Shown here piece by piece: positions 2,352 to 60,537 of a DNA stretch of 60,537 nt. Below the pieces are notes generated by a model. The model saw nothing but the letters and a program-made list of their open reading frames with translations, did not search any database and was not told the origin of the DNA. How positions within the stretch are numbered: position 1 is the first letter of the stretch; each line of letters begins with the position of its first letter. Origin of the DNA: Escherichia coli (GTDB lineage: Bacteria; Pseudomonadota; Gammaproteobacteria; Enterobacterales; Enterobacteriaceae). The translations under genes and the position numbers were made by a program. Location: the NCBI RefSeq assembly GCF_003334255.1, contig NZ_QOWU01000027.1, one strand, 5' to 3'.

Positions 2352-2360
2352 GGAAAGAGC

Positions 2361-5993: not shown

Positions 5994-6053
5994 AACACAG
6001 CGGGCAGTGATGCAACTGCCCGTTATCAACACGACTTACCAGCGGGGAAAGCG

Positions 6054-6371: not shown

Positions 6372-6540
6372 TATACTCTAAATAATTCAAATTGGTCCGA
6401 TCCGGCGCAACGTCCCAATGGCCTGGATTATAAATCTCATTATCTTAATTGCAACGGGGTCCAGCCGTGGTTATAATTCGTTCGTTGGAACACGATGTTG
6501 CACAGGCTGTGGTGTTAGGCCTGAAAATAGTAAATAAAAG

Positions 6541-6572
6541 AACCTGCCTCACCAGCAGGTTTTTTTATTTAC
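6541..6572 (+). terminator. Rho-independent terminator (hairpin ACCTGC-CTCACCA-GCAGGT followed by T7)
   Basis: Perfect 6-bp GC-rich stem, 7-nt loop, then TTTTTTTATTT on the + strand, about 170 bp downstream of the yehK stop. Confidence 0.8.
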
Positions 6573-6677
6573 TGTGATCTGCTTTCCAGATATTTTTCGC
6601 TCAAACAACTAATGCGCCAAACATTTATTGCGCGTAAAATATCGTTTATTTCATTAATACATTTCAGGGATGAATAT

Positions 6678-7766
6678 ATGTCACCGCAGAATAATCATCT
6701 GCAGCGTCCGCCTGCTGCTGTGTTATACGCCGATGAACTGGCAAAATTAAAACAAAATGATAACGCACCTTGCCCGCCCGGTTGGCAGTTAAGTTTGCCT
6801 GCGGCCCGTGCTTTTATCCTTGGCGACGAAGCGCAAAATATCAGCCGTAAAGTGGTGATTAGCCCCTCCGCTGTCGAACGTATGTTAGTCACTCTTGCTA
6901 CCGGCCGCGGTTTGATGTTGGTGGGGGAACCGGGTACCGCAAAATCTCTTCTTTCTGAATTACTGGCAACCGCTATTAGCGGCGATGCCGGGTTAACCAT
7001 CCAGGGCGGGGCATCTACCACCGAAGATCAAATCAAGTATGGCTGGAACTACGCCCTGCTTATCAATCATGGTCCGTCAACGGAAGCGCTGGTCCCTGCC
7101 CCGCTTTATCAGGGAATGCGCGACGGCAAAATCGTCCGTTTCGAAGAGATAACGCGTACACCGCTGGAAGTGCAGGACTGTCTGTTAGGTATGCTTTCTG
7201 ACAGGGTGATGACGGTGCCGGAACTCACTGGTGAAGCCAGTCAGCTCTATGCGCGAGAAGGCTTTAATATTATTGCCACTGCCAATACCCGCGATCGCGG
7301 CGTCAATGAAATGAGTGCTGCGCTAAAGCGTCGCTTCGATTTTGAAACGGTTTTTCCGATTATGGATTTCGCCCAGGAGTTGGAACTGGTCGCCAGTGCT
7401 TCGGCGCGTTTGCTGGCCCATAGCGGTATTCCGCATAAAGTGCCTGACGCGGTACTGGAATTACTGGTCCGCACCTTCCGCGATCTGCGTGCCAACGGCG
7501 AAAAGAAAACGTCAATGGATACACTGACAGCGATTATGTCCACCGCTGAAGCCGTGAACGTGGCCCATGCTGTGGGCGTCCGCGCCTGGTTTTTAGCGAA
7601 TCGCGCGGGGGAGCCTGCCGACCTGGTGGAATGTATTGCCGGAACCATCGTCAAAGATAACGAAGAAGATCGCGCGCGTCTGCGCCGTTACTTCGAACAG
7701 CGTGTCGCCACACATAAAGAAGCTCACTGGCAGGCTTATTATCAAGCCCGCCACCGCCTGCCGTGA
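6678..7766 (+). CDS. yehL: YehL, MoxR/AAA_5-type AAA+ ATPase (362 aa)
   Basis: ORF track 6612..7766; start placed at ATG 6678 (MSPQNNH) to give the 362-aa length. Walker A GEPGTAKS at ~6925-6948; Walker B-like VRFEEITR; stop TGA at 7764-7766. Confidence 0.9.
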   Translation: MSPQNNHLQRPPAAVLYADELAKLKQNDNAPCPPGWQLSLPAARAFILGDEAQNISRKVVISPSAVERMLVTLATGRGLMLVGEPGTAKSLLSELLATAISGDAGLTIQGGASTTEDQIKYGWNYALLINHGPSTEALVPAPLYQGMRDGKIVRFEEITRTPLEVQDCLLGMLSDRVMTVPELTGEASQLYAREGFNIIATANTRDRGVNEMSAALKRRFDFETVFPIMDFAQELELVASASARLLAHSGIPHKVPDAVLELLVRTFRDLRANGEKKTSMDTLTAIMSTAEAVNVAHAVGVRAWFLANRAGEPADLVECIAGTIVKDNEEDRARLRRYFEQRVATHKEAHWQAYYQARHRLP

Positions 7767-7776
7767 GGAAAGATGC

Positions 7777-10056: not shown

Positions 10057-11185
10057 ACTGAACGATCTTCTGACCACCCGTGAGCTACAACGCTGGCGAT
10101 TAATTCTTGGCGAAGCGGCAGAAACGACGCTTTGTGGGCTGGATGACAACGCCCGGCAGATAGACCACGCGCTGGAGTGGCTGTATGGGCGCGATCCTGA
10201 ACGGCTCCAGCGTGGTGAACGCTCCGGTGGATTAGGTGGCTCAAATCTCACCACCCCTGAGTGGATCAACAGTATTCACACGCTGTTTCCGCAACAGGTG
10301 ATTGAGCGGCTGGAAAGCGATGCCGTACTGCGCTACGGCATTGAAGATGTGGTGACAAATCTCGACGTGCTGGAACGTATGCAGCCTTCCGAAAGCCTGC
10401 TACGCGCCGTTTTGCACACCAAACATCTGATGAATCCCGAAGTACTGGCTGCCGCCCGCCAGATAGTGCGCCAGGTTGTTGAAGAAATTATGGCGCGACT
10501 GGCAAAGGAAGTTCGCCAGGCTTTTTCTGGTGTCCGCGATCGCCGTCGCCGTTCATTTGTTCCACTGGCGCGAAACTTTGATTTCAAAAGTACTCTGCGC
10601 GCCAACCTGCAACACTGGCACCCGCAACACGGCAAGTTGTATATCGAATCCCCCCGCTTTAACAGCCGCATTAAACGCCAAAGCGAACAATGGCAACTGG
10701 TCTTACTGGTTGATCAAAGCGGCTCGATGGTCGATTCGGTGATCCACTCTGCGGTGATGGCGGCCTGTTTGTGGCAGTTACCCGGCATTCGTACCCATCT
10801 GGTGGCGTTTGACACAAGCGTCGTTGATCTCACGGCAGACGTTGCCGATCCGATAGAGTTATTAATGAAAGTGCAATTAGGCGGCGGAACCAATATCGCC
10901 AGTGCCATGGAGTATGGTCGGCAACTTATTGAACAACCTGAAAAAAGCGTCATTATCCTAGTGAGCGATTTTTATGAAGGGGGTTCATCATCATTGCTGA
11001 CGCATCAGGTGAAAAAGTGTGTCCAGAGCGGCATCAAAGTGCTGGGACTGGCAGCGCTCGATAGCACAGCAACGCCTTGCTATGACCGCGATACGGCCCA
11101 GGCGCTGGTTAATGTCGGCGCACAAATAGCCGCCATGACACCGGGCGAGCTGGCATCATGGCTTGCGGAGAATCTTCAGTCATGA
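10049..11185 (+). CDS. yehP: YehP, von Willebrand factor A (VWA, CoxE-like) protein with complete MIDAS motif (378 aa)
   Basis: ORF track 9821..11185; start ATG 10049 (MSELNDLL) overlaps the yehM stop by 8 nt. MIDAS D-x-S-x-S (LVDQSGSM) at ~10711-10728, plus downstream T and D residues. Confidence 0.88.
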   Translation: MSELNDLLTTRELQRWRLILGEAAETTLCGLDDNARQIDHALEWLYGRDPERLQRGERSGGLGGSNLTTPEWINSIHTLFPQQVIERLESDAVLRYGIEDVVTNLDVLERMQPSESLLRAVLHTKHLMNPEVLAAARQIVRQVVEEIMARLAKEVRQAFSGVRDRRRRSFVPLARNFDFKSTLRANLQHWHPQHGKLYIESPRFNSRIKRQSEQWQLVLLVDQSGSMVDSVIHSAVMAACLWQLPGIRTHLVAFDTSVVDLTADVADPIELLMKVQLGGGTNIASAMEYGRQLIEQPEKSVIILVSDFYEGGSSSLLTHQVKKCVQSGIKVLGLAALDSTATPCYDRDTAQALVNVGAQIAAMTPGELASWLAENLQS

Positions 11186-13182
11186 ATTCACTACGTCCGG
11201 AATTATTAGAACTGACACCGCAGGCACTGACGGCGTTAAGCAATGCCGGTTTTGTTAAGCGCAGTCTTAAGGAACTGGAAAATGGCAACGTCCCGGAAAT
11301 CAGCCATGAGAACGGCGCTTTAATCGCCACCTTCAGTGACGGTGTCCATACCCAGCTGGCGAACGGCCAGGCACTGAAAGAGGCTCAGTGCACCTGTGGG
11401 GCCAGCGGCATGTGCCGTCATCGCGTGATGCTGGTGTTAAGTTATCAACGACTTTGTGCTACCGCCCAGCCTACGGGAAAAGAAGAGGAATGGGATCCGG
11501 CAATCTGGCTGGAAGAACTGGCTACCCTTCCCGATGCCACCCGCAAACGCGCACAGGTATTGGTCGCTAAAGGCATCACCATTGAGTTGTTATGTGCGCC
11601 GGGTGAAATTCCCTCTGCCCGCTTACCGATGAGCGATGTGCGTTTTTATTCCCGCAGCAGTATTCGTTTCGCCCGTTGTGATTGTATTGAAGGCACACTT
11701 TGCGAACATGTCGTACTGGCTGTGCAGGCCTTCGTCGAGGCCAAAGCGCAGCAAGCGGAATTTACTCATTTAATCTGGCAGATGCGCAGCGAACACGTCA
11801 CATCATCTGACGATCCGTTTGCCAGCGAAGAGGGCAACGCGTGTCGTCAATATGTTCAGCAATTAAGCCAGACATTATGGCTTGGCGGCATCAGCCAGCC
11901 GCTTATTCACTACGAGGCAGCATTCAACCGCGCATTGCAGGCGGCAGAGACCTGCAACTGGCGCTGGGTGAGTGAATCGCTACGGCAACTGCGCGCCAGC
12001 GTTGATGCCTTCCACGCCCGCGCCAGCCACTATAATGCCGGAGAATGCTTACATCAGCTTGCGGCATTAAACAGTCGATTAAATTGCGCACAAGAGATGG
12101 CCCGGCGCGACAGTATTGGTGAAGTTCCTCCTGTGCCGTGGCGCACGGTCGTTGGCTCTGGCATTGCCGGAGAAGCAAAGCTTGATCATCTGCGGCTGGT
12201 GTCTTTAGGTATGCGTTGCTGGCAGGATATTGAGCATTATGGTTTACGCATCTGGTTTACCGATCCCGACACCGGCAGTATTTTGCACCTTTCGCGCAGT
12301 TGGCCGCGAAGTGAACAGGAAAACTCACCGGCAGCTACGCGTCGGCTGTTTAGTTTTCAGGCTGGCGCACTGGCGGGCGGGCAAATTGTTTCACAAGCAG
12401 CAAAACGCAGTGCCGATGGCGAGCTGCTGTTAGCTACCCGCAACCGCTTAAGCAGCGTTGTGCCGCTGTCGCCTGATGCCTGGCAAATGTTGAGCGCGCC
12501 GTTACGCCAGCCGGGCATTGTGGCTTTGCGGGAATATTTACGCCAGCGTCCCCCCGCCTGCATACGGCCTCTTAATCAGGTCGATAACTTATTTATTCTG
12601 CCGGTCGCTGAGTGTATTTCGCTCGGTTGGGATAGCAGCCGCCAGACGCTGGATGCGCAGGTAATCAGCGGCGAAGGTGAAGATAATCTGCTGACGTTAT
12701 CACTGCCAGCCTCAGCCAGCGCGCCTTATGCCGTTGAACGCATGGCGGCGCTTTTGCAACAAACAGACGACCCCGTGTGTCTGGTTTCTGGCTTTGTCAG
12801 TTTTGTTGATGGGCAATTGACACTGGAACCACAGGTAATTATGACAAAGACTCGTGCCTGGGCGCTGGACGCTGAAACTGCGCCTGTGGCACCACTACCT
12901 TCTGCCAGCGTTTTGCCTGTGCCGTCTACTGCTCATCAGTTGCTGATGCGCTGCCAGGCGTTACTTATTCAACTGCTCCATAACGGCTGGCGCTATCAGG
13001 AACAGAGCGCTATTAGTCAGGCAGAGTTGCTGGCGAATGACCTCACCGCGGTGGGTTTTTATCGGCTGGCACATGTGTTGGGGCAATTTCGTAATACAGA
13101 AAGCGAGGCACGGGTAGAAGCAATAAATAACGGTGTTTTGCTTTGCGAACAATTATTCCCCATGCTTCAGCAACAAGGATGA
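11182..13182 (+). CDS. yehQ: YehQ, protein with two SWIM-type zinc-finger motifs (C-x-C-x5-C-x-H)
   Basis: ORF track 11158..13182; start ATG 11182 (MNSLRPELL) overlaps the yehP stop as ATGA. CTCGASGMCRH at ~11389-11421 and CDCIEGTLCEH at ~11677-11710. Exact start is uncertain. Confidence 0.82.
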   Translation: MNSLRPELLELTPQALTALSNAGFVKRSLKELENGNVPEISHENGALIATFSDGVHTQLANGQALKEAQCTCGASGMCRHRVMLVLSYQRLCATAQPTGKEEEWDPAIWLEELATLPDATRKRAQVLVAKGITIELLCAPGEIPSARLPMSDVRFYSRSSIRFARCDCIEGTLCEHVVLAVQAFVEAKAQQAEFTHLIWQMRSEHVTSSDDPFASEEGNACRQYVQQLSQTLWLGGISQPLIHYEAAFNRALQAAETCNWRWVSESLRQLRASVDAFHARASHYNAGECLHQLAALNSRLNCAQEMARRDSIGEVPPVPWRTVVGSGIAGEAKLDHLRLVSLGMRCWQDIEHYGLRIWFTDPDTGSILHLSRSWPRSEQENSPAATRRLFSFQAGALAGGQIVSQAAKRSADGELLLATRNRLSSVVPLSPDAWQMLSAPLRQPGIVALREYLRQRPPACIRPLNQVDNLFILPVAECISLGWDSSRQTLDAQVISGEGEDNLLTLSLPASASAPYAVERMAALLQQTDDPVCLVSGFVSFVDGQLTLEPQVIMTKTRAWALDAETAPVAPLPSASVLPVPSTAHQLLMRCQALLIQLLHNGWRYQEQSAISQAELLANDLTAVGFYRLAHVLGQFRNTESEARVEAINNGVLLCEQLFPMLQQQG

Positions 13183-13258
13183 AATAGTGCTTTTTACTAA
13201 GAGCTCTACTCCAGTTCCGGACTGCTCACGCCACGGTATTAGGCATATCCTATATAGC

Positions 13259-13286
13259 CCCTGGTGAGAGTCACCAGTTTCTTGAT
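13259..13286 (+). terminator. Rho-independent terminator downstream of yehQ
   Basis: Perfect inverted repeat CTGGTGA-GAG-TCACCAG followed by TTTCTTGATT. Confidence 0.7.
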
Positions 13287-13306
13287 TAAATAAAATGGAG
13301 TTTTAC

Positions 13307-13768
13307 ATGAAGGCTTTCAATAAGCTGTTTTCCCTCGTTGTTGCATCTGTTCTGGTTTTCTCTCTTGCTGGCTGCGGTGACAAAGAAGAATCGAAGAAAT
13401 TCAGCGCCAATCTGAACGGCACTGAAATTGCCATTACCTATGTCTACAAAGGTGACAAGGTGCTTAAGCAATCTTCTGAAACCAAAATTCAATTTGCCTC
13501 CATTGGTGCAACCACCAAAGAAGATGCTGCCAGGGCACTTGAGCCGTTAAGCGCCAAATACAAAAACATCGCGGGTGTTGAAGAAAAATTAACCTATACC
13601 GATACCTACGCGCAGGAAAACGTGACTATCGATATGGAAAAAGTGGATTTTAAAGCCCTGCAGGGTATTTCAGGAATCAACGTTTCTGCTGAAGATGCCA
13701 AAAAAGGTATCACTATGGCGCAAATGGAACTGGTGATGAAAGCCGCTGGTTTTAAAGAAGTGAAATAA
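13307..13768 (+). CDS. yehR: YehR, lipoprotein (153 aa)
   Basis: ORF track 13295..13768; start ATG 13307 with TGGAG SD; signal peptide ending in lipobox LAGC. Confidence 0.88.
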   Translation: MKAFNKLFSLVVASVLVFSLAGCGDKEESKKFSANLNGTEIAITYVYKGDKVLKQSSETKIQFASIGATTKEDAARALEPLSAKYKNIAGVEEKLTYTDTYAQENVTIDMEKVDFKALQGISGINVSAEDAKKGITMAQMELVMKAAGFKEVK

Positions 13769-13772
13769 TCTG

Positions 13773-13800
13773 TCGGCGGCCATGTTTCGCATGGCCGCCA
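13773..13800. terminator. Bidirectional hairpin terminator between convergent yehR and yehS
   Basis: 10-bp perfect stem GGCGGCCATG / CATGGCCGCC with loop TTTCG. Confidence 0.7.
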
Positions 13801-13808
13801 TACCCGTC

Positions 13809-14279
13809 TTAGCTTTTCTTCACATGCTGGCGCGCTGCCAGTCCACGCAGAAAATAACGTAAAAATTGATCGCCGCATTCGCGGAAGTTTTTATGATCCG
13901 GTGCACGCATCATCGCCGTAATTTCCGGCATCGAAACGCGGAACTGCTGTTCGGTGAGGATCGCCAGAATGTCATCGGTTTTCAGCGAAAACGCGATGCG
14001 TAATTTTTTCAGCACGATGTTGTTATTAATGCGACGTTCCGGCTCCAGTGCCGGAGCAGACTCATCCTTGCCGCGTTTTTCATAAATCAGGCCATTGAGG
14101 AATGACGACAAAACAATGTCCGGACAACGCTGAAAACCCTCTTCGTCTTCTTTACGTAGCCAGACGGCGATCTGTTCCGCGGTGGCTTCGACATTACCCA
14201 GCGCCAGAATACGCACCAGGTCATTATTATTGGCTTTCAAAATGTAGCGCACGCTGCGCAGAATATCGTTACTTAGCAT
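13809..14279 (-). CDS. yehS: YehS, DUF1456-family protein (156 aa)
   Basis: ORF track 13809..14336 (-); start trimmed to ATG at 14279 (MLSNDILRSV). Confidence 0.85.
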   Translation of the reverse strand: MLSNDILRSVRYILKANNNDLVRILALGNVEATAEQIAVWLRKEDEEGFQRCPDIVLSSFLNGLIYEKRGKDESAPALEPERRINNNIVLKKLRIAFSLKTDDILAILTEQQFRVSMPEITAMMRAPDHKNFRECGDQFLRYFLRGLAARQHVKKS

Positions 14280-14325
14280 GAGGCCTTCAGGTGTTGATGA
14301 GGCAAAAAGCCATTTTAGCAGTCTT

Positions 14326-15045
14326 TTACAGGCCAATCGCCTCTTTTAAGCTTTTCAGATAACGGCGGCTGACCGGCACGGTTAAGCCATTACGCAAAAT
14401 CAACTCGGCCTGGCCGTTATCTTCCAGACGAATCTCCTGTAAATGCGCGAGGTTAACCAGATACTGACGATGGCAGCGCAGTAGTGGTGTACGACTTTCC
14501 AGGGTACGTAATGTCAATTCGGTAAAGCCCTCTTTCCCTTCGTGGCTGGTAACGTAGACACCGCTCATCCGACTGCTGACAAATGCCACATCTTTCATTT
14601 GCAGCAAATAAATCCGACTATGCCCAGTACAAGGGATAAATTTCAGCGCCTGTTGATTTTCTGGTAACAGCGAAACATCCTGCTTGCTGCGTTCCTGCCG
14701 CAAACGCGCCAGCGTTTTCTCCAGTCGCGCTTCATCAATTGGCTTCAGCAGATAATCAAAGGCGTGTTCTTCAAAGGCTTTAATGGCGTATTCGTCAAAC
14801 GCGGTGAGAAAAACAATATACGGACGATGTTCCGGGTCGAGCATCCCCACCATTTCCAGACCACTGATGCGCGGCATCTGGATATCGAGAAACAGCACAT
14901 CCGGGCGCAGTTTATGCACCGCGCCGATCCCTTCCACGGCGTTTGAACACTCACCAACGATTTCAATATCGCTCTGCTCCTGCAAAAATACGCGCAGGTT
15001 CTCCCGTGCTAACGGTTCATCATCGACAATTAAGACTTTAATCAT
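14326..15045 (-). CDS. btsR: BtsR (YehT), LytTR-family response regulator (239 aa)
   Basis: ORF track 14326..15060 (-); receiver domain ([15 protein letters not shown]...D) and C-terminal LytTR domain; start overlaps the btsS stop as ATGA. Confidence 0.92.
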
Positions 15046-16727
15046 GCCTCGTCCCTCCATGGTAGTCGTAACGTTATTCGGGTGTAACTATCAGGCTCAC
15101 AGGCGACGCTTATCCCATAGTCATCGCCAAACCGTTCACGTAAACGCTTATCCACCAGATTCATCCCCAGCCCACTGGCATTGGTTACCGGTTGATACAA
15201 ACCGGCATTGTCTTCGATCTCCAGCATTAAATGTTGCCCCTCACGTCGGGCGCTGATTGCCACTCGCCCTGTATCCAGCAGTTGTGATGTCCCATGTTTA
15301 ATGGCGTTTTCCACTATCGGTTGCAGGGTAAACGCGGGCAATTGCTGCTGGGATAATTCTTGCGGAATAGCAATGTTGACCTGCAACCGCGACTGGAAGC
15401 GCGCCTTTTCAATTTGCAGATAAGCATTCACATGTTCAATTTCGTCGGCGAGAGTAACAAACTCCGAAGGCCGCTTTAAGTTTTTGCGGAAAAAAGTGGA
15501 AAGATACTGCACCAGCTGGCTGGCCTGTTCGCTGTCGCGACGGATCACCGCTTTAATGGTGTTAAGCGCATTAAACAAAAAATGGGGATTCACCTGGGCG
15601 TGAAGCAGTTTGATCTCTGACTGGGTGAGCATCGCTTTTTGCCGCTCATATTGCCCGGCAAGGATCTGCGCCGAAAGCAGTTGCGCAATCCCCTCGCCCA
15701 GCGTGCGGTTGATTGAACTGAATAAACGGTTTTTGGCTTCATACAATTTGATGGTGCCCATCACCCGCTGATTTTCACCACGCAACGGAATTACCAGCGT
15801 CGACCCCAGTTTGCATTGCGGATGCAAAGAGCAACGGTAAGGTACTTCGTTGCCATCAGCGTAGACCACTTCACCGGTTTCAATCGCTTTTAAGGTATAA
15901 GTCGAAGAAATCGGTTTGCCGGGTAAATGGTGGTCGTCACCAATTCCGGTAAAGGCCAGCAATTTCTCTCGATCGGTAATCGCGACTGCACCAATATCCA
16001 GCTCCTGATACAGCACCTGTGCCACTTTCATGCTGTTCACTTCGTTAAACCCCTGGCGCAAAATGCCTTCCGTCGAGGCCGCCACTTTCAGCGCAGTGGC
16101 AGAAAAAGCTGAAGTGTATTTTTCAAACATCGCGCGTTTATCGAGCAATATACGCATAAACAGCGCCGCGCCGACGGTATTGGTGACCATCATTGGCGCA
16201 GCAATATTACTCACCAGACGTACCGCATCTTCATAAGGTCGGGCGATCGCCAGGATGATCAACATTTGCACCATTTCAGCGACGAACGTGACGGCACCGG
16301 CGGTAATGGGGTTAAAGACTTTATCAGTGCGCCCGCGACGGATCAGGATGCTGTGTACCAGGCCGCCGAGCAATCCTTCAACGATGGTTGAGATCATGCA
16401 ACTTAGCGCGGTCATGCCCCCCATCGAATATCGATGTAAGCCGCCGGTCAGACCAACCAGCCCACCGACGACCGGACCGCCGAGTAAGCCGCCCATTACC
16501 GCGCCTATCGCACGGGTATTGGCAATAGAATCGTCAATGTGCAACCCAAACCAGGTGCCCATGATGCAGAAGATGGAAAAGACGATGTAGCAGAGAAATT
16601 TATGCGGCAGACGAACCGTGACCTGCATTAACGGTATGAATAATGGCGTTTTACTCATTAACCACGCAATGACTAAAAAAACGCACATCTGCTGAAGCAG
16701 CAGCAACACCAGATTAAAATCGTACAT
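15042..16727 (-). CDS. btsS: BtsS (YehU), LytS-family sensor histidine kinase (561 aa)
   Basis: ORF track 15042..16742 (-); N-terminal multi-pass membrane region, GAF region, H-box ([12 protein letters not shown]) and ATPase domain. Confidence 0.92.
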
Positions 16728-16948
16728 ACCCGCAAACCACACTTCCCTTTAAAACGCGTAACATACATTGCCTGCGTTTAACTTTCTTTGAACTCTTGCA
16801 GAAAAATGAGAATTCGTGAGTACGATCACTCAAAATCGCCTGGCAAAAATAAAATCACCCTATAGATGCACAAAAAACGGGCAAAACTACCTGGTTCGCA
16901 AAACTGCGTCTAAAGTTAAACCGGGACCTCGCGAGCAAGGGTGAGACG

Positions 16949-17680
16949 ATGGCGCTTTACACAATTGGTGAAGTGGCGTTGCTTTGTGATATTAATCCTG
17001 TCACGTTACGCGCGTGGCAGAGGCGTTACGGATTGCTGAAACCGCAACGGACAGACGGCGGTCATCGGCTGTTCAACGATGCCGATATTGACCGGATCCG
17101 CGAGATCAAACGCTGGATCGACAACGGCGTGCAGGTCAGCAAAGTTAAAATGCTGCTCAGTAATGAAAATGTTGATGTGCAGAACGGCTGGCGCGATCAG
17201 CAAGAAACATTACTGACTTACCTGCAAAGCGGCAATCTACATAGCCTGCGAACGTGGATCAAAGAGCGCGGTCAGGATTACCCCGCCCAGACACTCACCA
17301 CACATCTGTTTATTCCTCTGCGCCGACGGCTTCAGTGCCAACAACCGACTCTCCAGGCGCTGCTGGCGATCCTCGACGGCGTACTGATCAACTACATCGC
17401 CATTTGTCTGGCTTCGGCACGTAAAAAACAGGGTAAAGATGCGCTGGTGGTTGGCTGGAATATTCAGGATACCACCCGTCTGTGGCTGGAGGGCTGGATT
17501 GCCAGTCAACAAGGATGGCGCATTGATGTCCTCGCCCACTCGCTCAATCAACTACGCCCTGAACTATTCGAAGGCCGTACATTGCTGGTGTGGTGCGGTG
17601 AAAATCGAACCTCCGCCCAACAGCAGCAACTCACCAGTTGGCAAGAACAAGGCCATGATATTTTCCCACTCGGCATTTAA
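16949..17680 (+). CDS. mlrA: MlrA, MerR-family transcriptional regulator (243 aa)
   Basis: ORF 16949..17680; N-terminal MerR HTH (YTIGEVALLCDINPVTLRAWQRRYGLL). Confidence 0.92.
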   Translation: MALYTIGEVALLCDINPVTLRAWQRRYGLLKPQRTDGGHRLFNDADIDRIREIKRWIDNGVQVSKVKMLLSNENVDVQNGWRDQQETLLTYLQSGNLHSLRTWIKERGQDYPAQTLTTHLFIPLRRRLQCQQPTLQALLAILDGVLINYIAICLASARKKQGKDALVVGWNIQDTTRLWLEGWIASQQGWRIDVLAHSLNQLRPELFEGRTLLVWCGENRTSAQQQQLTSWQEQGHDIFPLGI

Positions 17681-17739
17681 TGATTCGTTAACAAATGCGC
17701 TTTACTGTACAATCCTTTCGTTAACATAAGGAGTGCATT

Positions 17740-17847
17740 ATGCGCATAGCTAAAATTGGGGTCATCGCCCTGTTCCTGTTTATGGCGTTAGGCGGAATTG
17801 GTGGCGTCATGCTCGCAGGTTATACCTTTATTTTGCGTGCTGGCTAA
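17740..17847 (+). CDS. yohO: YohO, small single-helix membrane protein (35 aa)
   Basis: Absent from the ORF track (too short). Manual translation gives [35 protein letters not shown], with AAGGAG SD 7 nt upstream and TAA at 17845-17847. Confidence 0.8.
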
Positions 17848-18559
17848 GCGCCTGCACCAGCCTTTCAAACAGGCGGTCTGCGATGATCGCCGCCAGTGCC
17901 ACCAGTAACGCCCCCTGGATCACATACGCGGTATTAAATCCGCTAAGCCCGATGATGATGGGCGTACCCAGCGTGCTGGCCCCTACCGTTGAGGCGATCG
18001 TCGCCGTACCAATGTTGATAATCACCGAAGTTCGCACGCCCGCCAGAATCACCGGAGCCGCCAGCGGTAGCTCGACCTTACGCAGTCGCTGACCACGACT
18101 CATTCCCATACCTTTCGCAACTTCTGTCACGCTGGCATCAATCGCTCCCAGCCCGGCAAGTGTCGCCTGCAGGACGGGCAGCACACCGTAAAGGATCAAG
18201 GCGATAATCGCTGGTTGCAGACCAAAGCCGATCACCGGAACGGCGATCGCCAGCACTGCGACGGGCGGAAAAGTCTGTCCAACGGCGGCAATAGTTTCCA
18301 CCAGTGGGCGAAATTCCGCGCCCCACGGGCGAGTGACAGCAATTCCGGCACCAGTGCCAATGATCACCGCAAACAAACTCGAAATTCCCACCAGCCAGAA
18401 ATGAGCCAGTGCCAGAGCTGCAAAACTTTCTTGCTGATAAACGGGTCGTGGCAGTTGTGGGAACAAGGCAGCAAACAGCGGCTGGCTGTAAGGCAGCCAG
18501 AAAATCAGCGCCACAAACAGAGCAATGAGCCAGAACAGCGGATCGCGCAACATCTTCAT
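17828..18559 (-). CDS. yehW: YehW, ABC transporter permease of the osmF-yehYXW osmoprotectant system (243 aa)
   Basis: ORF 17828..18559 (-); multi-pass membrane protein. Its 3' end overlaps the yohO 3' end by 20 nt. Confidence 0.92.
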
Positions 18560-18563
18560 ACGC

Positions 18564-19490
18564 TTACGCCTCCTCCAGCAGATCCTGAAAATGCAGCGTG
18601 CCGCAAGGCTGGCCCTGCGTGTTCATCACCGGCAGCACCTCGCATCCCCGCGCGACAAACAGGGAGAGCGCATCGCGTAGCGTCATCTCTTCTGCCAGTG
18701 CCTCACCTTCTGCCCGTTCTTCGCGACGCACGTAATCCGCCACACTACGTAACGAAAGCAGGCGCACCCCCAGTTCACTACGTCCAAAAAACTGGCGGAC
18801 AAAATCATTCGCCGGACGAGTCAGCATCGTCAGCGGATTGCCCTGCTGCACTACTTCACCGTGATCCATCAATACCAGATGTTCTGCCAGCCGTAGCGCC
18901 TCATCAATATCATGAGTGACCAGCACAATGGTACGCCCCAGCAAACGGTGAATGCGCGTCATCTCTTGTTGCAACGCGCCGCGCGTTACCGGGTCCAGTG
19001 CGCCAAAAGGTTCATCCATCAGTAAGACTTGCGGATCGGCAGCCAGTGCACGCGCCACTCCCACACGTTGCTGCTGACCACCGGAAAGCTGATGCGGATA
19101 ACGCTCACGCAAATTTGACTCCAGCCCCAGTAGCGCCATTAATTCGTCGATACGATCGTCAATCCGTGCCCGCGACCATTTTTGTAATTGCGGCACGGTA
19201 GCGATGTTTTGCGCCACGCTCCAGTGGGGGAACAGGCCAATAGATTGAATGGCATAGCCCATCCGGCGGCGCAACTCCAGTACTGGCAGCGAGCGAATTT
19301 CTTCTCCGGCAAAGCGGATCTCTCCGCTGTCATGCTCCACCAGGCGGTTAATCATTTTCAGGGTGGTGGATTTGCCGGAGCCAGATGTGCCAATCAGCAC
19401 CGAAAAACTCCCTTCCTGAAAATTGAGATTGAGATCGTTAACGGCTTTTTGTGCGCCGAACAGTTTGCTGACATGGCTAAATTCAATCAT
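18564..19490 (-). CDS. yehX: YehX, ABC transporter ATP-binding protein (308 aa)
   Basis: ORF 18564..19490 (-); Walker [13 protein letters not shown] signature LSGGQQQRV, Walker B LLMDEP. Confidence 0.93.
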
Positions 19491-20640
19491 TACGTTTCAC
19501 CTTCAGCAGTGCGATAAGCAAATCGAACAGCGCGTCGGTAAGCACCGCCAGAACAATTACCGGGATCACCCCCAGCAACACTAAATCAATGGCGCTGCTT
19601 AGCAGCCCCTGGAAAACCAGCGCACCAAAACCGCCTGCGCCGATTAACGCCGCAATCACCGCCATACCTACAGTTTGCACCATCACCACCCGCAGGCTGC
19701 GCAGAAATACCGGTAACGCCAGTGGTAACTGAACATGCAGGAATCGCTGCGCCCCGCTCATGCCCATCGCTCTGGCGCTCTCCAGCACATCGCGCGGGAT
19801 CTGGTTCAAACCGACTACCACGCCGCGCACCAGCGGCAGCAAGGCATAGAGCACCAGCGCAATCAGTGCGGGTGTCATTCCGGTTCCTGCTATGCCGAGC
19901 GTCCCCAGCCACGGAAAGGCCGTAACCAGCGCGGCAAGCGGCGCAATCAACAGGCCAAAGAGCGCCACCGAAGGCACGGTCTGAATCACATTGAGCAGAG
20001 AAAAAATTGCCCCCTGCCGAGCAGTGGAAAAGTAGCACCAGATGCCCAACGGCACACCAATCACTAACGCAGGCAGCACCGCACCAAACAGCAACGTCAG
20101 ATGTTGTGCCAGCGCGTCGTCAAACACATCCTGACGGTTGGCGTATTCTTTCATTAGTGAGAGATCGTTAAGCGTGCCGGAGTACAGCAACCACAGCGGA
20201 ATAATGGCAATCTGCATATGCAACAACCAGCGCCACAGCGGATGCGTGGAGATTCGGCGGATGGCATCGCTACAGGCCAGCAATGCCAGCGCCGCAGCCA
20301 GCCAGAAACCACTGCCGAGGCTGGTACGCGCCAGCGCACTGCCATTTTGCGCCAGTTGGGTCGCCGCCTTTCCAGCTCCCCACACCAGCAATACGAAGAC
20401 GAATTGCGCCAGAATGAGTGCACAAATGCTGCCTTTTTTACCGGGAATAAAACAGGCCGTCAGCCAGGCGCAACCAACGCCCACCAGCATCCAGATCGTT
20501 TGCGGCCACAGCTGCCAGAGATGACGCCCCTCACCCGAAACTAAACGATTAGGCGCGTAACTGATAAACGGCAGCGCCGCTGCGATTGCCGTCAGCAACA
20601 GCAGCAGCGCCAGAACAGGATTAATACGGAAATAAGTCAC
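19483..20640 (-). CDS. yehY: YehY, ABC transporter permease (385 aa)
   Basis: ORF 19483..20640 (-); hydrophobic multi-pass protein; overlaps the yehX start by 8 nt. Confidence 0.92.
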
Positions 20641-29405: not shown

Positions 29406-30842
29406 TCAGCGTTTGTAACCCCCGCCCAACGCACCAGTGAGTTGAATGGAGGCATCCAGCCACTGCCCTTGCAATAACAGGCCATTGGCCCGCTCACGCA
29501 GCGCGGGGATTCTGGCTTCGCTGACGCGGGAACCAGCAATGATGCCCGCGTTAAAGCGCGCCTGCGCAAGACCTACCACACGCAAGGCATCGCGCTCAAT
29601 TTGCGCCTGATGCTGGTTTTTCTCCGCCAGTGTCTGAACCTGACTGGCTGCCCGCGCCACGTCATTCACCGCTTCAACCACCGCTTTGTTGTAGCTGGCG
29701 ATAGACAAGTTGCTTTCGGCTTTTGCGATATCGAGATTGGCGTTAAGACGACCACTATCGAAAATGGGTAGCGTCAGGCCTGCCGTAACGCCCATTTGCT
29801 GCGCGGAATGACGGAACAGATCGCTTAAGTGCAACGCATCCTGTTGCAGGAAGGCCATCAGGTTGATGTCAGGATAAAATGCCGCTTTTGCCGCATCAAT
29901 GGTGCTTAGCGATGACTCAACGTACCAGTGCGCCGCCTGCAAATCTGCCCGCCGGGCCAGTAAGGAGTACCCCAGTTCATCAGGAAGCTGGCTTGCCACT
30001 TTCGGCAACGCGACCGGTTTAAGCTTCAATGACTTTGTCTGGTTATTTGTAAGTGCGCTTAACCGTGCCTCAATAATTTTCATTTTCCCCGCGACATCGT
30101 TGAGCTGCTGCCGGGTTTTGCTGGCATTAATATCGGTTTCCACACCTTCAACTGAAGAAGTAATCCCGTTCTGATATAGCTGGCGATCGGTCGCGATAAT
30201 GGTGTTCTGCTCTTTTTCTATTTGCTGCAAGACCGTGTTTAACGCCGCCTGGGTTTGCCACTCCCAGTACAGGCGGGCTACGCTGCCAGCCAGCAATTGG
30301 CGGGTTTGCTCGCGTTCCGCCGCCCGTGCTTTAACCGTACCCAGGCGGGCAGTAACCTCCGCCCGATTCTTTCCCCAGATATCGAGATGCCAGCCCGCCG
30401 TTAAGCCAAAAGTACCGTTGGTGTACCACGGGCCGGTCGTACCTGCGGCCGGATCGTTCAGAGCAAACGGCCCCATTAAGCCTTCTGCCGACATTTTTTG
30501 CCGCTCCATATCCGCCGAAAAGTCGATCTGCGGACCATCCTGAGTGGCAACTGCCTTCGCCTGGGCTTCAGCTAGCTGAATGCGCTGTTCAGCCACCTGC
30601 ATATCCGGTGCGTTCTGTAGTGCATTGTTAATTAAGGAAGTGAGTTGATTATCGTGATACTCCAGCCACCATTGGCTGTCTGGCCAACCATTTTTCAGCG
30701 CCGTGGGTAATGCGGTGTCAACTTGTGCAGCGGGCGTTTGCTGGCTTAACGCCTGGCGGGTTTCATGCATAGGCGCACACCCGGCCAGCATCAGTAACAG
30801 CGGAAAACAGGCGATGGCTGGATAAAAGGAATCACGATTCAT
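29406..30842 (-). CDS. mdtQ: MdtQ, OprM/TolC-type outer-membrane efflux lipoprotein; reads as an intact 478-aa frame here
   Basis: ORF track 29406..30932 (-) is one uninterrupted frame; start trimmed to ATG 30842 (MNRDSFYPAIACFPLLLMLAGC, lipobox). Confidence 0.85.
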   Translation of the reverse strand: MNRDSFYPAIACFPLLLMLAGCAPMHETRQALSQQTPAAQVDTALPTALKNGWPDSQWWLEYHDNQLTSLINNALQNAPDMQVAEQRIQLAEAQAKAVATQDGPQIDFSADMERQKMSAEGLMGPFALNDPAAGTTGPWYTNGTFGLTAGWHLDIWGKNRAEVTARLGTVKARAAEREQTRQLLAGSVARLYWEWQTQAALNTVLQQIEKEQNTIIATDRQLYQNGITSSVEGVETDINASKTRQQLNDVAGKMKIIEARLSALTNNQTKSLKLKPVALPKVASQLPDELGYSLLARRADLQAAHWYVESSLSTIDAAKAAFYPDINLMAFLQQDALHLSDLFRHSAQQMGVTAGLTLPIFDSGRLNANLDIAKAESNLSIASYNKAVVEAVNDVARAASQVQTLAEKNQHQAQIERDALRVVGLAQARFNAGIIAGSRVSEARIPALRERANGLLLQGQWLDASIQLTGALGGGYKR

Positions 30843-31065
30843 GGGGGAATAATCAGGTAAGAAAAGGTGCGCGGAGATTACCGTGTGTTGCGATATATTT
30901 TTTAGTTTCGCGTGGCAATACATCAGTGGCAATAAAACGACATATCCAGAAAAATATACACTAAGTGAATGATATCTTCCGATTTATCTTAATCGTTTAT
31001 GGATAACGGCAAAGGGCTTCGTTTTTTCCTATACTTATTCAGCACTCACAAATAAAGGAACGCCA

Positions 31066-46861: not shown

Positions 46862-48852
46862 TCAGAAGCGATAATCCACTGCCATAAAGTAACGACGTCC
46901 GTCTTCGTTATAGCTGTAGTCGTCACGACTGAGATCCTTGTCGCCAAGGTTCAGCACGCCTGCGCGCAGTTTGACGTCTTTAGTCACCTGCCAGGCCGCG
47001 CCGGTATTCCAGATGGTATAACCGCCCGGTGTTTTAGCCGTCGCGCTGTCGGCGCGTTTCTGCCCGGTATAGTGCCCAGAAACATAGAATGACCAGTCTT
47101 CCAGCGCCAGCGGTTTCCAGTCCAGCGTACCGTTAGCAGTATGGAACGGCAGATCGGATAGCGGTTTGTTTTCGCCGTTGCTGACATCACGACCATCGTT
47201 GTAGGTGTAGTTGATCGACAGTTTCCATTCATCGTTGAACGGAATTTTCAGTTCGGTTTCCACGCCCTGAATACGAGCTTTGTTAACGTTGTAGTAGCTA
47301 AATACCGGTATGCGCCGTCCGTTAGCGCCCGTCTCAAAACCAACAAAGTTTTGGTAGCCCGGTGCAGCGTTGACGTCAGACGTACGGCTGATGCTGATAC
47401 GATCTTTCACATCGTTACGGAAAACGGTAACGCTGGATTCAACCCCTTCCAGCCAGCCTTCTTCACCCATGTAGTAAAGCCCCAGCTCCCAACTTTCGCT
47501 GGTTTCTGGTTTCAGATCCGGGCTACCCACAATCTTACATGCGCCACGGCAGGAATTGCTCGTCCAGTCAGGGCTAAGTTGCAACAGAGAAGGTGCTTTA
47601 AATGCCGTCGCCCAGCCCCCTTTCACCGTTACGGTGTCGGTGGCGTTATAAACCAGGTAGGCACGCGGACTCCAGTGTTCACCGTAGGTTTCGTGATCGT
47701 CCATACGCACGCCGGTCGTCAGCGCCAGCGGCTCGAAGATCCGCCATTCATCTTCCACAAACAGCGCGTACTGGCTGGCAGACGTTTTGGAGCTGGTTCC
47801 CCCGGTCAGGTTCACCGCATCGCTAAGTTTGTCGTGACGCCATTCACCGCCAACCGTGAGAAACTGATTAATCGCCGTCAGCGGCAACGTGTATTTGCCG
47901 TCGACCGTATTGCTTTCGGAAGTTATCGGGCTGCTGTTGCCAGGGTTTTTGTTCTCGACTTTCTCACCGTAGTATTTCAGTTCGCTGGTGCCGTAATCCC
48001 AACGCCCATTATGGCTGACGGAGTAGTTCTGGCGTTCCAGGCGGTTTTTGTCCAGCGAGTCGGAATCACGATCCTGACGGTCGAAACCGTATCCGGCAGT
48101 AAAATCGTGATTTTGATTCGGTGTCCAGGCAAATTCGACATTGCCGTGCGGCTGGAGAATCCTTCAATACGCGGCGTTTCTCCGGTATCGGTGGTCGTTG
48201 AGTTTTGCGGGTCATCCTTTTCACGTTTTGCCAGGCTGCCGTAAGCTTTCATTCCCAGCACACCATCAATTAATGGTCCACTGGTAAAGAACTGACCGTT
48301 ATAGGTGTCACCGCGATCGCGATGTTCCTGAATGGTGGTATCGACGGTAACGGTACCCGACCATTTCTGACCGATTTTTTTGGTGATGATATTCACTACA
48401 CCGCCGAGCGCATCGGAACCGTACAGCGACGACATCGGGCCACGGACCACTTCAATACGTTCGATGGAATCGACCGGGATCCAGTTCAGATCGAAATCAT
48501 TGTGGCGGAAGACGGCATTGCGGGAGTTCACGCGTTTACCGTCGACGAGAATCAGGGTATAGCTGCTGTCCAGACCACGAATACTAACGCCCTTACGGTT
48601 ATCCCCTTCGTTCGTCAGTTGTACGCCAGGCACTTCTTTGAGGACATCCTTCAGATTCTGTACCGGTTTTCGCTGCAGGTCTTCCTGGGTAATGACGCTG
48701 ATACTGGCAGGTGCATCTTTAAGATTTTGTTCCACGGAAGATGCAGTGACAACCATCGTTTCGCCATCATCATCGACCGCTAACACAGGCCATGCACAAG
48801 AAATAGCGGACAAACACAGCCCGACCCGTACGAAAGGGTTCAACCTAAACAT
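46862..48852 (-). pseudogene. cirA: cirA (TonB-dependent catecholate siderophore / colicin I receptor) disrupted by a single-base frameshift
   Basis: Two minus-strand ORFs (47977..48852, N-terminal; 46862..47887, C-terminal ending ...AVDYRF) in different frames. Total span is 1991 nt, one short of the 1992 nt needed for a 663-aa protein plus stop. Both frames are open across ~48130-48150; a missing base near 48137/48138 restores [15 protein letters not shown]... Confidence 0.85.
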
Positions 48853-54977: not shown

Positions 54978-56228
54978 TCAAGCTAAACCAATAAAGAACC
55001 CGGCAATGGTCGCACTCATCAAGTTGGAAAGCGTCGCCGCCGCCAGCGCCCGTAAACCAAGCTGGGCGATTTCCGGCGCACGGTGTGGCGCAACCGCAGA
55101 AAACGCCCCCACCACCACCCCGATAGAACCAAAGTTAGCGAAACCGCACAACGCGAAGGAAATAATCGCCACAGTTTTAGCATCGAGAGTGCCAGCCGTT
55201 TGCAGATAGGGTGAGAAATTGAGATAAGCGACAAATTCATTTATTGCCAGTTTCTGTCCAATCAAACTCCCGGCAAGATTCGCATCACTCCAGTCCACAC
55301 CCATCACCCACGCCAGTGGAGCCAGCAGGTAACCTAAAATGGACTCCAGCGAGGCATGTTCAAAACCAAACCAGCCACCAACGCCGCCGATAATACCGTT
55401 AATCAACGCAATTATTGCAACAAATGCCATCACCACTGTTGCCACACCTGCGGCGATTTTCAGCCCGGTCATTGCCCCTGTCGCAGCGGCTTCAATAATG
55501 CTTTTTGGCGGTGTTTCGGTGAAAGAGAGGTTATTAAAGGAAACCTGCGAAGATTCCGTTGCCGGGCTTAACAGGCGGGCAAACAAGATCCCGCCAGGGA
55601 TCGCCATTAATGATGCCGCCAGCAGATATTCCACAGGCACGCCCAGTGCGGCGTAACCAATCATTGTCGAACCAGCAATCGAGGCCATGCCACTACAAAT
55701 CGCTGTAAATAATTCATTGCGATTCAGACGATCGATAAAGGGTTTGACGATTGCCGGAATTTCGTTTTGCCCGAGGAAAATGGTGGTGACCGCGACGAAT
55801 GACTCGATCTTGCTGATATTTAATGCTTTCTGGAAGATACCGCCGAGAATTCGAATTAAAATCCCCATCACACCGATGTAGTAGAGAATACTCACCAGCG
55901 CGGTGACGAAGATAATTGCCGGTAACACCCTGAAACCAAAGATAAATCCTGCACCATCAAATAAGGTATCCATTTTCGGTCCGACCAGAGAACCGAAGAT
56001 AAATGCGCTACCCGCGTCGCTGTACGCCATCACTTTATGCACGCCAAAAGCGACTTTTTCAGCGACCCAACGCCCTGGCGGTAACCAAAGCATAATGCCG
56101 CCAATCACGACCTGTAACACTAACGCCGCGCCAACGGTACGCAGGCTGATCTTCTTCTTGTTTACTGACAGTAAAAACGCAATCGTCAGCAATACCACCA
56201 TTCCCAGAACACTTCTCATGACATCCAT
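54978..56228 (-). CDS. nupX: NupX, NupC-family (CNT) nucleoside transporter (416 aa)
   Basis: ORF 54978..56228 (-); near-identical paralog of psuT in this window. Confidence 0.92.
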   Translation of the reverse strand: MDVMRSVLGMVVLLTIAFLLSVNKKKISLRTVGAALVLQVVIGGIMLWLPPGRWVAEKVAFGVHKVMAYSDAGSAFIFGSLVGPKMDTLFDGAGFIFGFRVLPAIIFVTALVSILYYIGVMGILIRILGGIFQKALNISKIESFVAVTTIFLGQNEIPAIVKPFIDRLNRNELFTAICSGMASIAGSTMIGYAALGVPVEYLLAASLMAIPGGILFARLLSPATESSQVSFNNLSFTETPPKSIIEAAATGAMTGLKIAAGVATVVMAFVAIIALINGIIGGVGGWFGFEHASLESILGYLLAPLAWVMGVDWSDANLAGSLIGQKLAINEFVAYLNFSPYLQTAGTLDAKTVAIISFALCGFANFGSIGVVVGAFSAVAPHRAPEIAQLGLRALAAATLSNLMSATIAGFFIGLA

Positions 56229-56327
56229 AGTGATTATCTCTTCATGTCATATTGGGCGACGGCTTTCTGCCCATCAGAAATAGCCAGGCCTGCATCTTGC
56301 GATACCGGCCCGGCTTGTTATCAACAC

Positions 56328-58167: not shown

Positions 58168-59418
58168 TTACGCCAGACCAATAAAGAACCCGGCAATAGT
58201 CGCACTCATCAGGTTGGAAAGCGTTGCTGCTGCCAGCGCCCGTAAACCAAGCTGGGCGATTTCCGGCGCGCGTTTTGGCGAAATAGCCGAAAATGCGCCA
58301 ACGACAACACCGATAGAACCAAAGTTAGCAAAACCACAAAGCGCAAAGGAGATAATCGCAATGGTTTTCACTTCCAGCGTGCCGCCCGTTTGCAGGTATG
58401 GGGAGAAACTCAGGTAAGCGACGAATTCGTTAATCGCCAGTTTCTGCCCAATCAGGCTACCCGCAAGATTGGCATCACTCCAGTCCACACCCATGATCCA
58501 CGCCAGCGGTGCCAGCACATAGCCAAAAATACTTTCCAGAGAGGCATTGGCGAAACCAAACCAGCCGCCAATTCCGCCGATAATGCCGTTGATCAGCGCA
58601 ATAATTGCGACAAACGCCATTACCACCGTCGCCACACCAGCGGCGATTTTTAGCCCGGTCATCGCACCGCTCGCCGCCGCTTCGATAAAGCTTTTTGGCG
58701 GCGTTTCGCTGAACGACAGATTTTCAAATGTGACCTGCGAAGGCTCGGTTGCCGGGCTAAGAATACGTGCAAACAAAATCCCGCCAGGGATCGCCATCAG
58801 CGATGCCGCTAACAGGTAGTCAATTGGTACGCCCATTCCGGCATAACCAATCATCATCGAACCAGCAATGGACGCCATCCCGCTACAAATTGCGGTAAAC
58901 AACTCGTTGCGATTCATGCGATCGATAAACGGTTTAACGATCGCCGGGATCTCATTTTGCCCGAGGAAAATAGTAGTAACCGCAACAAAAGATTCGATTT
59001 TGCTGATGTTGAGGGCTTTCTGGAAAATGCTGCCAAGGATGCGAATCAGCAGCCCCATCACGCCAATGTAGTACAGCAGACTGATGAGCGCAGTAACGAA
59101 AATAATCGCCGGAAGTACGCGAAAGGCGAAGATAAAACCCGCACCGTCAAACAGGACATCCATTTTCGGCCCAACCAGCGAACCAAAAATGAAGGCGCTA
59201 CCGGCATCACTGTAAGACATCACTTTATGAACGCCTAATGCCGCCTGTTCTACTGCCCATTTTCCCGGTGGGAAGTAGAGCATGATGCCACCAATAGCGA
59301 TTTGCAGCAGCAGTGCGGCTCCAACCGTGCGCAAACTGATGCTCTTTTTATTCACTGACAACAGAAATGCTATTGCCAGTAACACCACCATCCCCACAAC
59401 ACTTCTCATTATATCCAT
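58168..59418 (-). CDS. psuT: PsuT (YeiM), NupC-family putative pseudouridine transporter (416 aa)
   Basis: ORF 58168..59418 (-). Confidence 0.92.
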   Translation of the reverse strand: MDIMRSVVGMVVLLAIAFLLSVNKKSISLRTVGAALLLQIAIGGIMLYFPPGKWAVEQAALGVHKVMSYSDAGSAFIFGSLVGPKMDVLFDGAGFIFAFRVLPAIIFVTALISLLYYIGVMGLLIRILGSIFQKALNISKIESFVAVTTIFLGQNEIPAIVKPFIDRMNRNELFTAICSGMASIAGSMMIGYAGMGVPIDYLLAASLMAIPGGILFARILSPATEPSQVTFENLSFSETPPKSFIEAAASGAMTGLKIAAGVATVVMAFVAIIALINGIIGGIGGWFGFANASLESIFGYVLAPLAWIMGVDWSDANLAGSLIGQKLAINEFVAYLSFSPYLQTGGTLEVKTIAIISFALCGFANFGSIGVVVGAFSAISPKRAPEIAQLGLRALAAATLSNLMSATIAGFFIGLA

Positions 59419-59511
59419 AATGATTTTCCCTTCATGCCGGTAAACCCGGCGTCAGCGCCAGGTTTTGGTATGCTTGATGAGTACGGGCGACGGCTTTCTG
59501 CCCGTCAGAAA

Positions 59512-60450
59512 TTAACCCGCGAGACGCTGATATTCTTTGGCAATTTCGCTCGCCAGAATGGCGTTGTTGAACACCAGCTGGATGTTGGATTTCAGGCTGT
59601 CACCGCCGGTCAGTTCAGCAACGCGCGCCAGCAGGAATGGCGTACTTTCTTTACCAATGACTCCCTGAGCTTCAGCTTCAGCTACCGCCTGATCGATCGC
59701 CGCATTGATAGTGTGTTCCGGCATAGCAAACTGTTCCGGGATCGGGTTCGCTACCACGAGGCCACCGTTCAGACCGCTTTGCCATTTCACCGCCATTGCA
59801 CGGGCAATTTCGCTGGCGCTGTCGAGACGAATGCTGACGTCAAACGGGCTGGTGCGGCAGAAAAACGCAGGCAGCGCTTTAGTCTGATAGCCAATTAACG
59901 GCACACCGAAGGTTTCTAAATACTCAGTGGTTAATCCTAAATCGAGAATAGATTTCGCCCCGGCACAAACAACGGTGACATTAGTATTTGCCAGTTCTTG
60001 CAAATCGGCAGAAATATCGAAGGTATGTTCCGCCCCGCGATGCACACCACCAATTCCCCCGGTGGCAAATACTTTAATTCCGGCAAGCGCCGCAATAATC
60101 ATCGTTGAAGCCACAGTGGTTGCGCCATTTTTTCCGGCGGCAACAACAAAAGGTAAATCGCGACGACTAACTTTGGTCACGTTATGCCCTTCACGACCCA
60201 GTAATTCAATTTCTTCTTTGCTTAACCCCACTTTCATCACGCCGCCAATAATGGCGATCGTGGCAGGTACAGCGCCCTGTTTACGAATAGTTTCTTCAAC
60301 TTCAATTGCGGTCTGGGCATTTTGTGGGAACGGCATCCCGTGAGAAATAATGGTCGATTCCAGCGCCACAACCGGTTTTTTGTTTTTTAAAGCGTCCTGC
60401 ACTTCCGGGGAAATTTGTAATAATTCAGGGGAAATTTTTAATTCAGACAT
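59512..60450 (-). CDS. psuG: PsuG (YeiN), pseudouridine-5'-phosphate glycosidase (312 aa)
   Basis: ORF track 59512..60474 (-). Start trimmed to ATG at 60448-60450 (MSELKISPEL); the track's extension uses a TTG that lies inside IS1 sequence. Confidence 0.9.
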   Translation of the reverse strand: MSELKISPELLQISPEVQDALKNKKPVVALESTIISHGMPFPQNAQTAIEVEETIRKQGAVPATIAIIGGVMKVGLSKEEIELLGREGHNVTKVSRRDLPFVVAAGKNGATTVASTMIIAALAGIKVFATGGIGGVHRGAEHTFDISADLQELANTNVTVVCAGAKSILDLGLTTEYLETFGVPLIGYQTKALPAFFCRTSPFDVSIRLDSASEIARAMAVKWQSGLNGGLVVANPIPEQFAMPEHTINAAIDQAVAEAEAQGVIGKESTPFLLARVAELTGGDSLKSNIQLVFNNAILASEIAKEYQRLAG

Positions 60451-60460
60451 TCTGCGTTCT

Positions 60461-60537
60461 GGTGATGCTGCCAACTTACTGATTTAGTGTATGATGGTGT
60501 TTTTGAGGTGCTCCAGTGGCTTCTGTTTCTATCAGCT
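60461..60537 (+). mobile_element. insA: IS1 left terminal inverted repeat and start of insA (window-truncated)
   Basis: GGTGATGCTGCCAACTTACTGATTTAGTGTATGATGGTGTTTTTGAGGTGCTCCAGTGGCTTCTGTTTCTATCAGCT matches the canonical IS1 end and the beginning of insA (GTG GCT TCT GTT TCT ATC AGC = MASVSIS). Begins 10 bp upstream of the psuG ATG. Confidence 0.88.

Follow-up and report, generated by a model that had tools for sequence, protein, structure and literature searches.

An IS1 insertion in the 3′ end of psuK, ten nucleotides from the psuG start codon, in a K-12-like Escherichia coli lineage

The polarity that IS1 exerts in either orientation, through Rho, is a classical property of the element. Its termini can also act on neighbouring genes, and hybrid promoters made with them have been described (Steinrueck and Guet 2017, PMC5526668; Prentki et al. 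1986, as listed in Table 1 of PMC9330008). [quoted passage not shown]

The locus we describe here, the psuK-psuG junction of an Escherichia coli contig, is related to each of these systems. It resembles proU AD3 in that IS1 stands a few bases before a start codon, at or in the RBS; it differs in that another operon is concerned, that IS1 at the same time interrupts the 3′ end of the gene upstream, which overlaps psuG, and that the effect is predicted. With the hybrid promoters it shares the same terminus and an outward -35-like hexamer directed toward the neighbour, but its flank is devoid of a -10 at the right spacing and, the ATG being only 10 nt from the IS end, a hybrid promoter could yield no translatable psuG mRNA. 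The closest cases are other IS1 copies in psuK itself, that is the same element in the same gene, several of them within 50 bp of the site studied here; the nearest are the left end of a copy in E. coli 2EC1 and the right junction of a copy on the draft contig PGJH01000053, each 1 bp away. None of these copies, however, is found at K-12 position 3223, and some are associated with deletions or lie in the opposite orientation. The present insertion lies nearer to psuG than any of them, and the psuG Shine-Dalgarno sequence is lost both here and at the site 1 bp away.

The window, by which we mean the whole stretch of DNA analysed (60,537 nt), has at its right edge the following features:

58168..59418, minus strand: psuT, NupC-family nucleoside transporter, 416 aa, downstream of psuG (annotation of the identical K-12 gene)
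59512..60450, minus strand: psuG, pseudouridine-5′-phosphate glycosidase, 312 aa, common V220A allele, coding sequence intact
60438..60460, minus strand: orphaned psuK tail, 23 nt (nt 920-942: AG AAC GCA GAA TGT CTG AAT TAA), overlapping the psuG start
60452..60460, no strand assigned: 9-bp IS1 target site CTGCGTTCT, the copy adjoining the IS1 left end (K-12 L001 3215-3223)
60461..60537, plus strand: IS1 left end, cut off by the contig end
60461-60483: left terminal inverted repeat of IS1, ~23 bp, GGTGATGCTGCCAACTTACTGAT, identical to annotated IS1A left ends
60468-60495: inward insA promoter-like site, CTGCCA-16-TATGAT (promoter scan)
60516 onward: first 7 insA codons from the GTG start, GTG GCT TCT GTT TCT ATC AGC, read as (M)ASVSIS

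The last 77 nt (GGTGATGCTGCCAACTTACTGATTTAGTGTATGATGGTGTTTTTGAGGTGCTCCAGTGGCTTCTGTTTCTATCAGCT), which occur once in the window, match the IS1 left end at 77 of 77 positions, with no match in 100 dinucleotide-preserving shuffles. They are identical to the first 77 nt of a 768-bp element of E. coli 2EC1 (L002 4225-4301) annotated in RefSeq as an 'IS1-like element IS1A family transposase', and the insA start at 60516 corresponds to the RefSeq CDS start at L002 4280, which is IS1 nt 56. The identity with the IS1 of E. coli and Shigella (IS1A/IS1 family) covers the terminal repeat of 23 bp and continues through the insA promoter region to the insA start; the insA frame begins ~55 nt from the left end and its promoter lies partly inside the terminal repeat, as expected of IS1. 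No difference in kind was observed and, with 77 of the 768 nt present in the window, the isoform (IS1A, B, D and others) is left at the family level, the full-length features having been read in related loci that carry 768-bp copies and in the right-end stubs of three public contigs (L009-L011).

The same 77 nt belong to a multi-copy repeat, E. coli genomes containing a median of 10 places that match them, and the opposite edge of the window is built alike. Positions 1-77 are the terminus of an IS186/IS421 element (IS4 family) inserted in a DUF4132 (molR/yehH-like) gene, and the junction at 77/78 is common to eight complete genomes, K-12 having no IS at that site. In ECCNB12-2 and others, IS421 occupies the same DUF4132 site in the opposite orientation, and the match is limited to the 23-bp terminal repeat (window 55-77). 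Since both ends consist of exactly 77 nt of a multi-copy IS, the window is a complete short-read contig broken at repeats: the assembler, unable to cross such a repeat, would have stopped 77 nt into IS1. We infer from the two stubs a k-mer of 77, and the break in a repeat means that the sequence has no extension past 60537 within this assembly.

Aligned as a whole to K-12, the window is homologous from 78 to 60460 only. The region 78-20000 (yehI-yehX) is ~1.7% divergent from K-12 and the region 20000-60460 differs from it at only 4 positions, a contrast that points to a recombination boundary near 20 kb. The mdtQ gene is intact here (508-aa ORF, 29406-30932, minus strand, with a difference at 30691); in K-12 a T-run is one T shorter, and the gene is annotated there as a pseudogene with a frameshift.

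When window 60238-60537 was compared by megablast with 5,426 complete E. coli genomes, K-12-type genomes aligned to query positions 1-223 only, and hence the chromosomal homology stops exactly at 60460. The psuG ATG occupies 60450-60448 on the minus strand, so that 10 nt (TCTGCGTTCT, 60451-60460) separate it from IS1. In the K-12 MG1655 annotation, psuK (L001 3201-4142) and psuG (2275-3213), both on the minus strand, overlap by 13 nt, and IS1 is consequently located within the psuK coding sequence, with no intergenic spacer. Window position 60460 is K-12 L001 3223, which is psuK nt 920 of 942 in codon 307 of 313; only the 23-nt tail is left in the window and the remainder of the gene is displaced beyond IS1. 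The gene order, the single strand and the psuK/psuG overlap are those of the psuK-psuG-psuT cluster, and psuG and psuT are near-identical to their K-12 counterparts. The paralogues nupX and psuT, ~79% identical and lying 3 kb apart on the same strand, form an internal repeat (54987-56246 and 58177-59436), which is a known feature of K-12.

The insertion splits the psuG Shine-Dalgarno sequence as GG|AG (K-12 GTGGAGAACGCAGAATG versus window CACCAGAACGCAGAATG). The strongest pairing that the 25 nt preceding the ATG form with the 3′ end of 16S rRNA amounts to -6.4 kcal/mol with a 7-nt spacing in K-12 and to -1.8 kcal/mol with a 16-nt spacing in the window; psuT retains its own Shine-Dalgarno sequence (-5.3 kcal/mol). 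A 320-aa ORF starting from TTG at 60474 runs into IS1 and puts MAASPERR before the normal MSELK start of PsuG; this extended protein has no exact match in a 15-billion-protein collection, and the normal 312-aa PsuG is present on more than 1000 contigs. These results bear out the first-pass annotation of the sequence, which had read a canonical IS1 end followed by the start of insA from 60461, had placed the element 10 bp from the psuG ATG, had regarded it as separating psuG-psuT from an upstream kinase gene that it might truncate, and had dismissed the TTG start as an artefact.

The far side of the element was sought in public data. Fusion proteins reading from psuK into the IS1 right end were predicted for target duplications of 7-11 bp and submitted to an exact-match lookup in the 15-billion-protein collection. 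The product of a 9-bp duplication, a 310-aa protein ending in SLVENAG, was found on 7 public contigs (including those of the GenBank proteins CAM3060518.1, CUK08965.1, OWD38296.1 and RCQ37999.1) and that of an 8-bp duplication (335 aa) on a single one, PGJH01000053 (L011); the products of 7- and 10-bp duplications (315 and 316 aa) are absent from the collection. On the 9-bp contigs (L009, L010), psuK continues to nt 928 and is followed by the IS1 right end, ...GTGGAGAACGCAG|GGTAATGACTCCAAC...; the public-draft junction reads psuK...GAGAACGCAG|GGTAATGACTCC, where GGTAATGACTCC is the IS1 right end. The junction ...GTGGAGAACGCAG|GGTAATGACTCC is the exact complement of that of the window for a 9-bp duplication, with an equal IS1 orientation, and a second copy of CTGCGTTCT would thus stand beyond the IS1 right end. 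The search for the other IS1 end and for a target-site duplication of 8-9 bp, which the first-pass annotation had put forward as a check, was in this way carried out through public assemblies and points to the 9-bp duplication CTGCGTTCT, the partner junction having been read in assemblies or read sets other than the source assembly but belonging to the same lineage. The IS1 stubs of L009 and L011 (120 and 127 nt, versus 77 in the window) indicate that these contigs come from assemblies other than that of the window. PGJH01000053 was rejected as a record of the same event and treated as separate: its more natural partner is the left junction of 2EC1 type, 1 bp away, with which it gives a 9-bp duplication.

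What connects the window to the partner junction is a rare marker shared with another read set. The cirA gene, encoding the catecholate siderophore and colicin I receptor, has a 1-bp deletion at ~48147, in the non-homopolymer context GCCGT[C]GCGG, which splits it into ORFs of 291 aa (47977-48852, minus strand) and 341 aa (46862-47887, minus strand). The 291-aa product occurs on only 22 public contigs, gut metagenome assemblies among them, and not in the closest complete genomes; the deletion is probably genuine, a loss-of-function allele by which a lineage can be recognised. One of these contigs comes from Logan run ERR1948968 and shows 100% identity with the window along 10,557 nt. The psuK′-IS1 right junction (L010) is present in this run too, and its presence together with the rare frameshift makes a simple insertion most likely. 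The best-matching complete genomes (LD27-1, LR-06, L9, MB06232 and K-12) have neither the cirA deletion nor the IS1; LD27-1 and LR-06 are identical over 25 kb. Two of the cirA-frameshift contigs exceed 0.2 Mb, while those that encode the 310-aa fusion all stay at or below 50 kb; this contrast suggests that cirA mutated before IS1 entered psuK.

None of the 5,426 complete E. coli genomes contains the exact junction of the window; 2EC1 alone comes within 1 bp, with a flanking deletion. IS1 is found elsewhere in psuK in 13 of the 5,426 (2EC1, U1, 2017.15.02CC, FFFEB2, VG888-46E9, VTB97584v, L1_E925, BL12/GS04/BHD6, 2017-19-1CC, 23AR1101 and PCP06171), at about 11 distinct sites. In seven complete genomes, a copy oriented as in the window lies no more than ~650 bp from the psuG start. 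Four of these copies are simple insertions (L003, L004, L007 and L008) with 9-bp duplications at L001 3254-3262, 3323-3331, 3738-3746 and 3765-3773; the other three (2EC1, VTB97584v and L1_E925) have no duplication, and the DNA next to them has lost 513, 681 and 550 bp, respectively, by deletion. An apparent orientation bias, with only left ends facing psuG, proved to be an artefact of the query: a mirrored query gave six more genomes with IS1 in the opposite orientation, at sites 3237-3245 and 3781-3789. Two of these loci (L025 and L027) also have 9-bp duplications, and all six simple sites mapped consist of a single 768-bp IS1 with a 9-bp duplication.

The 2EC1 locus (L002 4225-5825) contains two IS1 copies in psuK. 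The flanks of the first correspond to K-12 3224 on the left, which is the site implied by PGJH01000053, and to 3738 on the right, which is the VG888-46E9 site; this arrangement suggests either that two pre-existing IS1 insertions recombined or that an adjacent deletion took place. The second copy, a simple insertion, has the 8-bp duplication AATATTCA.

The model we propose, and consider highly probable, is that a single 768-bp IS1 moved by ordinary transposition into the final codons of psuK, in an E. coli lineage of K-12-like (phylogroup A) type. The insertion would have duplicated the 9-bp CTGCGTTCT (60452-60460), placing the left end of the element toward psuG and its right end toward psuK. 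The K-12 cluster has a single minus-strand promoter-like site, located upstream of psuK (L001 4215-4188), and the promoter scan found no sigma70-like site on that strand between psuK and psuT. The insertion would cut off psuG, and largely psuT, from this only recognisable promoter. Read-through RNA starting from it would have to cross ~773 untranslated nt over IS1, which would expose it to Rho-type polarity, and the RNA that reaches the psuG start would present neither an RBS nor translational coupling. The outcome would be a loss-of-function (polar) mutation of pseudouridine catabolism, with no activation.

The alternative that deserves most attention, although we hold it unlikely, is that the junction at 60460/60461 results from an IS1-mediated adjacent deletion, an inversion or a recombination between IS1 copies, in which case psuK would be partly or wholly missing or relocated and no duplication would exist. 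The other side of IS1 lies beyond the window, the 2EC1 left end is 1 bp from its junction, and the deletions without duplication seen in three of the seven same-orientation relatives are the main reason for keeping this reading. It is opposed by the complementary junction on 7 contigs, where psuK is intact to nt 928 before the IS1 right end, by the co-occurrence of that junction and of the cirA frameshift, on sequence 100% identical to the window, in ERR1948968, and by the size of the implied duplication, 9 bp as at all six simple psuK insertions mapped. A larger IS1-bounded segment beyond 60537, such as a Tn9-like composite transposon or a tandem IS1, would reproduce the data as far as the outer ends go, which are all that short-read stubs display, for composites in direct repeat give the same two junctions and the same 9-bp duplication, and 2EC1 does carry two copies in psuK; yet each simple psuK insertion examined is a single 768-bp element and the data contain no sign of cargo, so that we regard such a segment as very improbable. 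An assembly chimera, in which an IS1 stub had been misjoined to psuG with no insertion at all, is scarcely credible: the junction does lie at a contig end and in a repeat, but de Bruijn contigs enter a repeat only along junction-spanning k-mers, and the matching junction on the opposite side, at the same 9-bp target, occurs in independent assemblies and read sets.

A different objection concerns the effect of the insertion rather than its structure, and supposes that the -35 of the IS1 left end forms a hybrid outward promoter that activates psuG-psuT or makes it constitutive. IS1 termini can activate neighbours in the right context through their half promoter (PMC5526668; Table 1 of PMC9330008), and the hexamer TTGGCA, 8 nt from the IS end, does face psuG. 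However, the -10 candidates at a spacer of 16-18 nt (GAATGT, AATGTC and ATGTCT) have at most 2 of 6 matches and overlap the psuG ATG, so that transcription would begin inside the psuG coding sequence, and the psuG Shine-Dalgarno sequence is destroyed. At its threshold, the scanner reported no outward, minus-strand promoter-like site, either for the 77-nt stub or for a full IS1 placed in the window orientation, the sole site detected in the stub being the inward insA promoter. Of the elements of an IS-created hybrid promoter (a -35, a -10 at the proper spacing and a start upstream of the RBS), only the -35-like part is present. The first-pass annotation had noted that IS1 ends can create hybrid outward promoters; the general statement stands, the half promoter being known (PMC5526668), but the geometry of this site disfavours it, and we give activation even less credit than a composite element.

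Simple transposition of a single IS1 thus remains the preferred reading, and its consequences can be considered gene by gene. Given the 9-bp duplication, the kinase would consist of residues 1-309 of PsuK followed by a glycine, without the four terminal residues ECLN. The crystal structure of E. coli PsuK is modelled only to Asn308 (PMC9247573), and since the structure is described no further than this residue, the kinase is probably intact after the truncation; PsuK 1-309 + Gly would probably stay active. As judged from the sequence, psuG expression is likely lost, and that of psuT, which would depend largely on upstream transcription, is probably reduced. A sigmaS-RNAP SELEX peak is listed inside psuG (PMC5493296), from which some psuT expression may persist. 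The predicted net effect is that pseudouridine catabolism is lost or strongly reduced through the silencing of psuG.

The insertion is real but routine, insertional or polar inactivation in an operon being the best-known class of IS effects, and it is already present in several public draft assemblies; no published mention of it was found in the literature searched. It involves no new element, mechanism or system. Its recognition explains the contig end and the over-long psuG ORF, and flags psuK as 4 residues shorter, while the prediction of fusion proteins recovers from public data the missing side of a contig broken at a repeat.

In conclusion, our analysis predicts that this lineage is unable to catabolise pseudouridine normally, psuG being probably silent and psuT reduced. 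The position of the other psuK copies adds a further question. Five of the ~11 IS1 sites lie within 48 bp of the psuG start, two of them just 1 bp apart, but a rough scan statistic worked out by hand, for 5 of 11 sites in 48 bp out of 650 bp, puts p at ~0.07, too weak a value to convince, and a hot spot at the psuG start was rejected as a statistical result. Could the 3′ end of psuK next to psuG nevertheless be a preferred or selected target of IS1, with at least 11 sites in both orientations in the last 650 bp and, here, an allele that would keep an active kinase with a silent glycosidase? We think it rather improbable, somewhat more so than a rearranged junction. If it were so, gut E. coli would have lost or rewired pseudouridine catabolism repeatedly, perhaps as an adaptation, and pseudouridine-5′-phosphate might accumulate.
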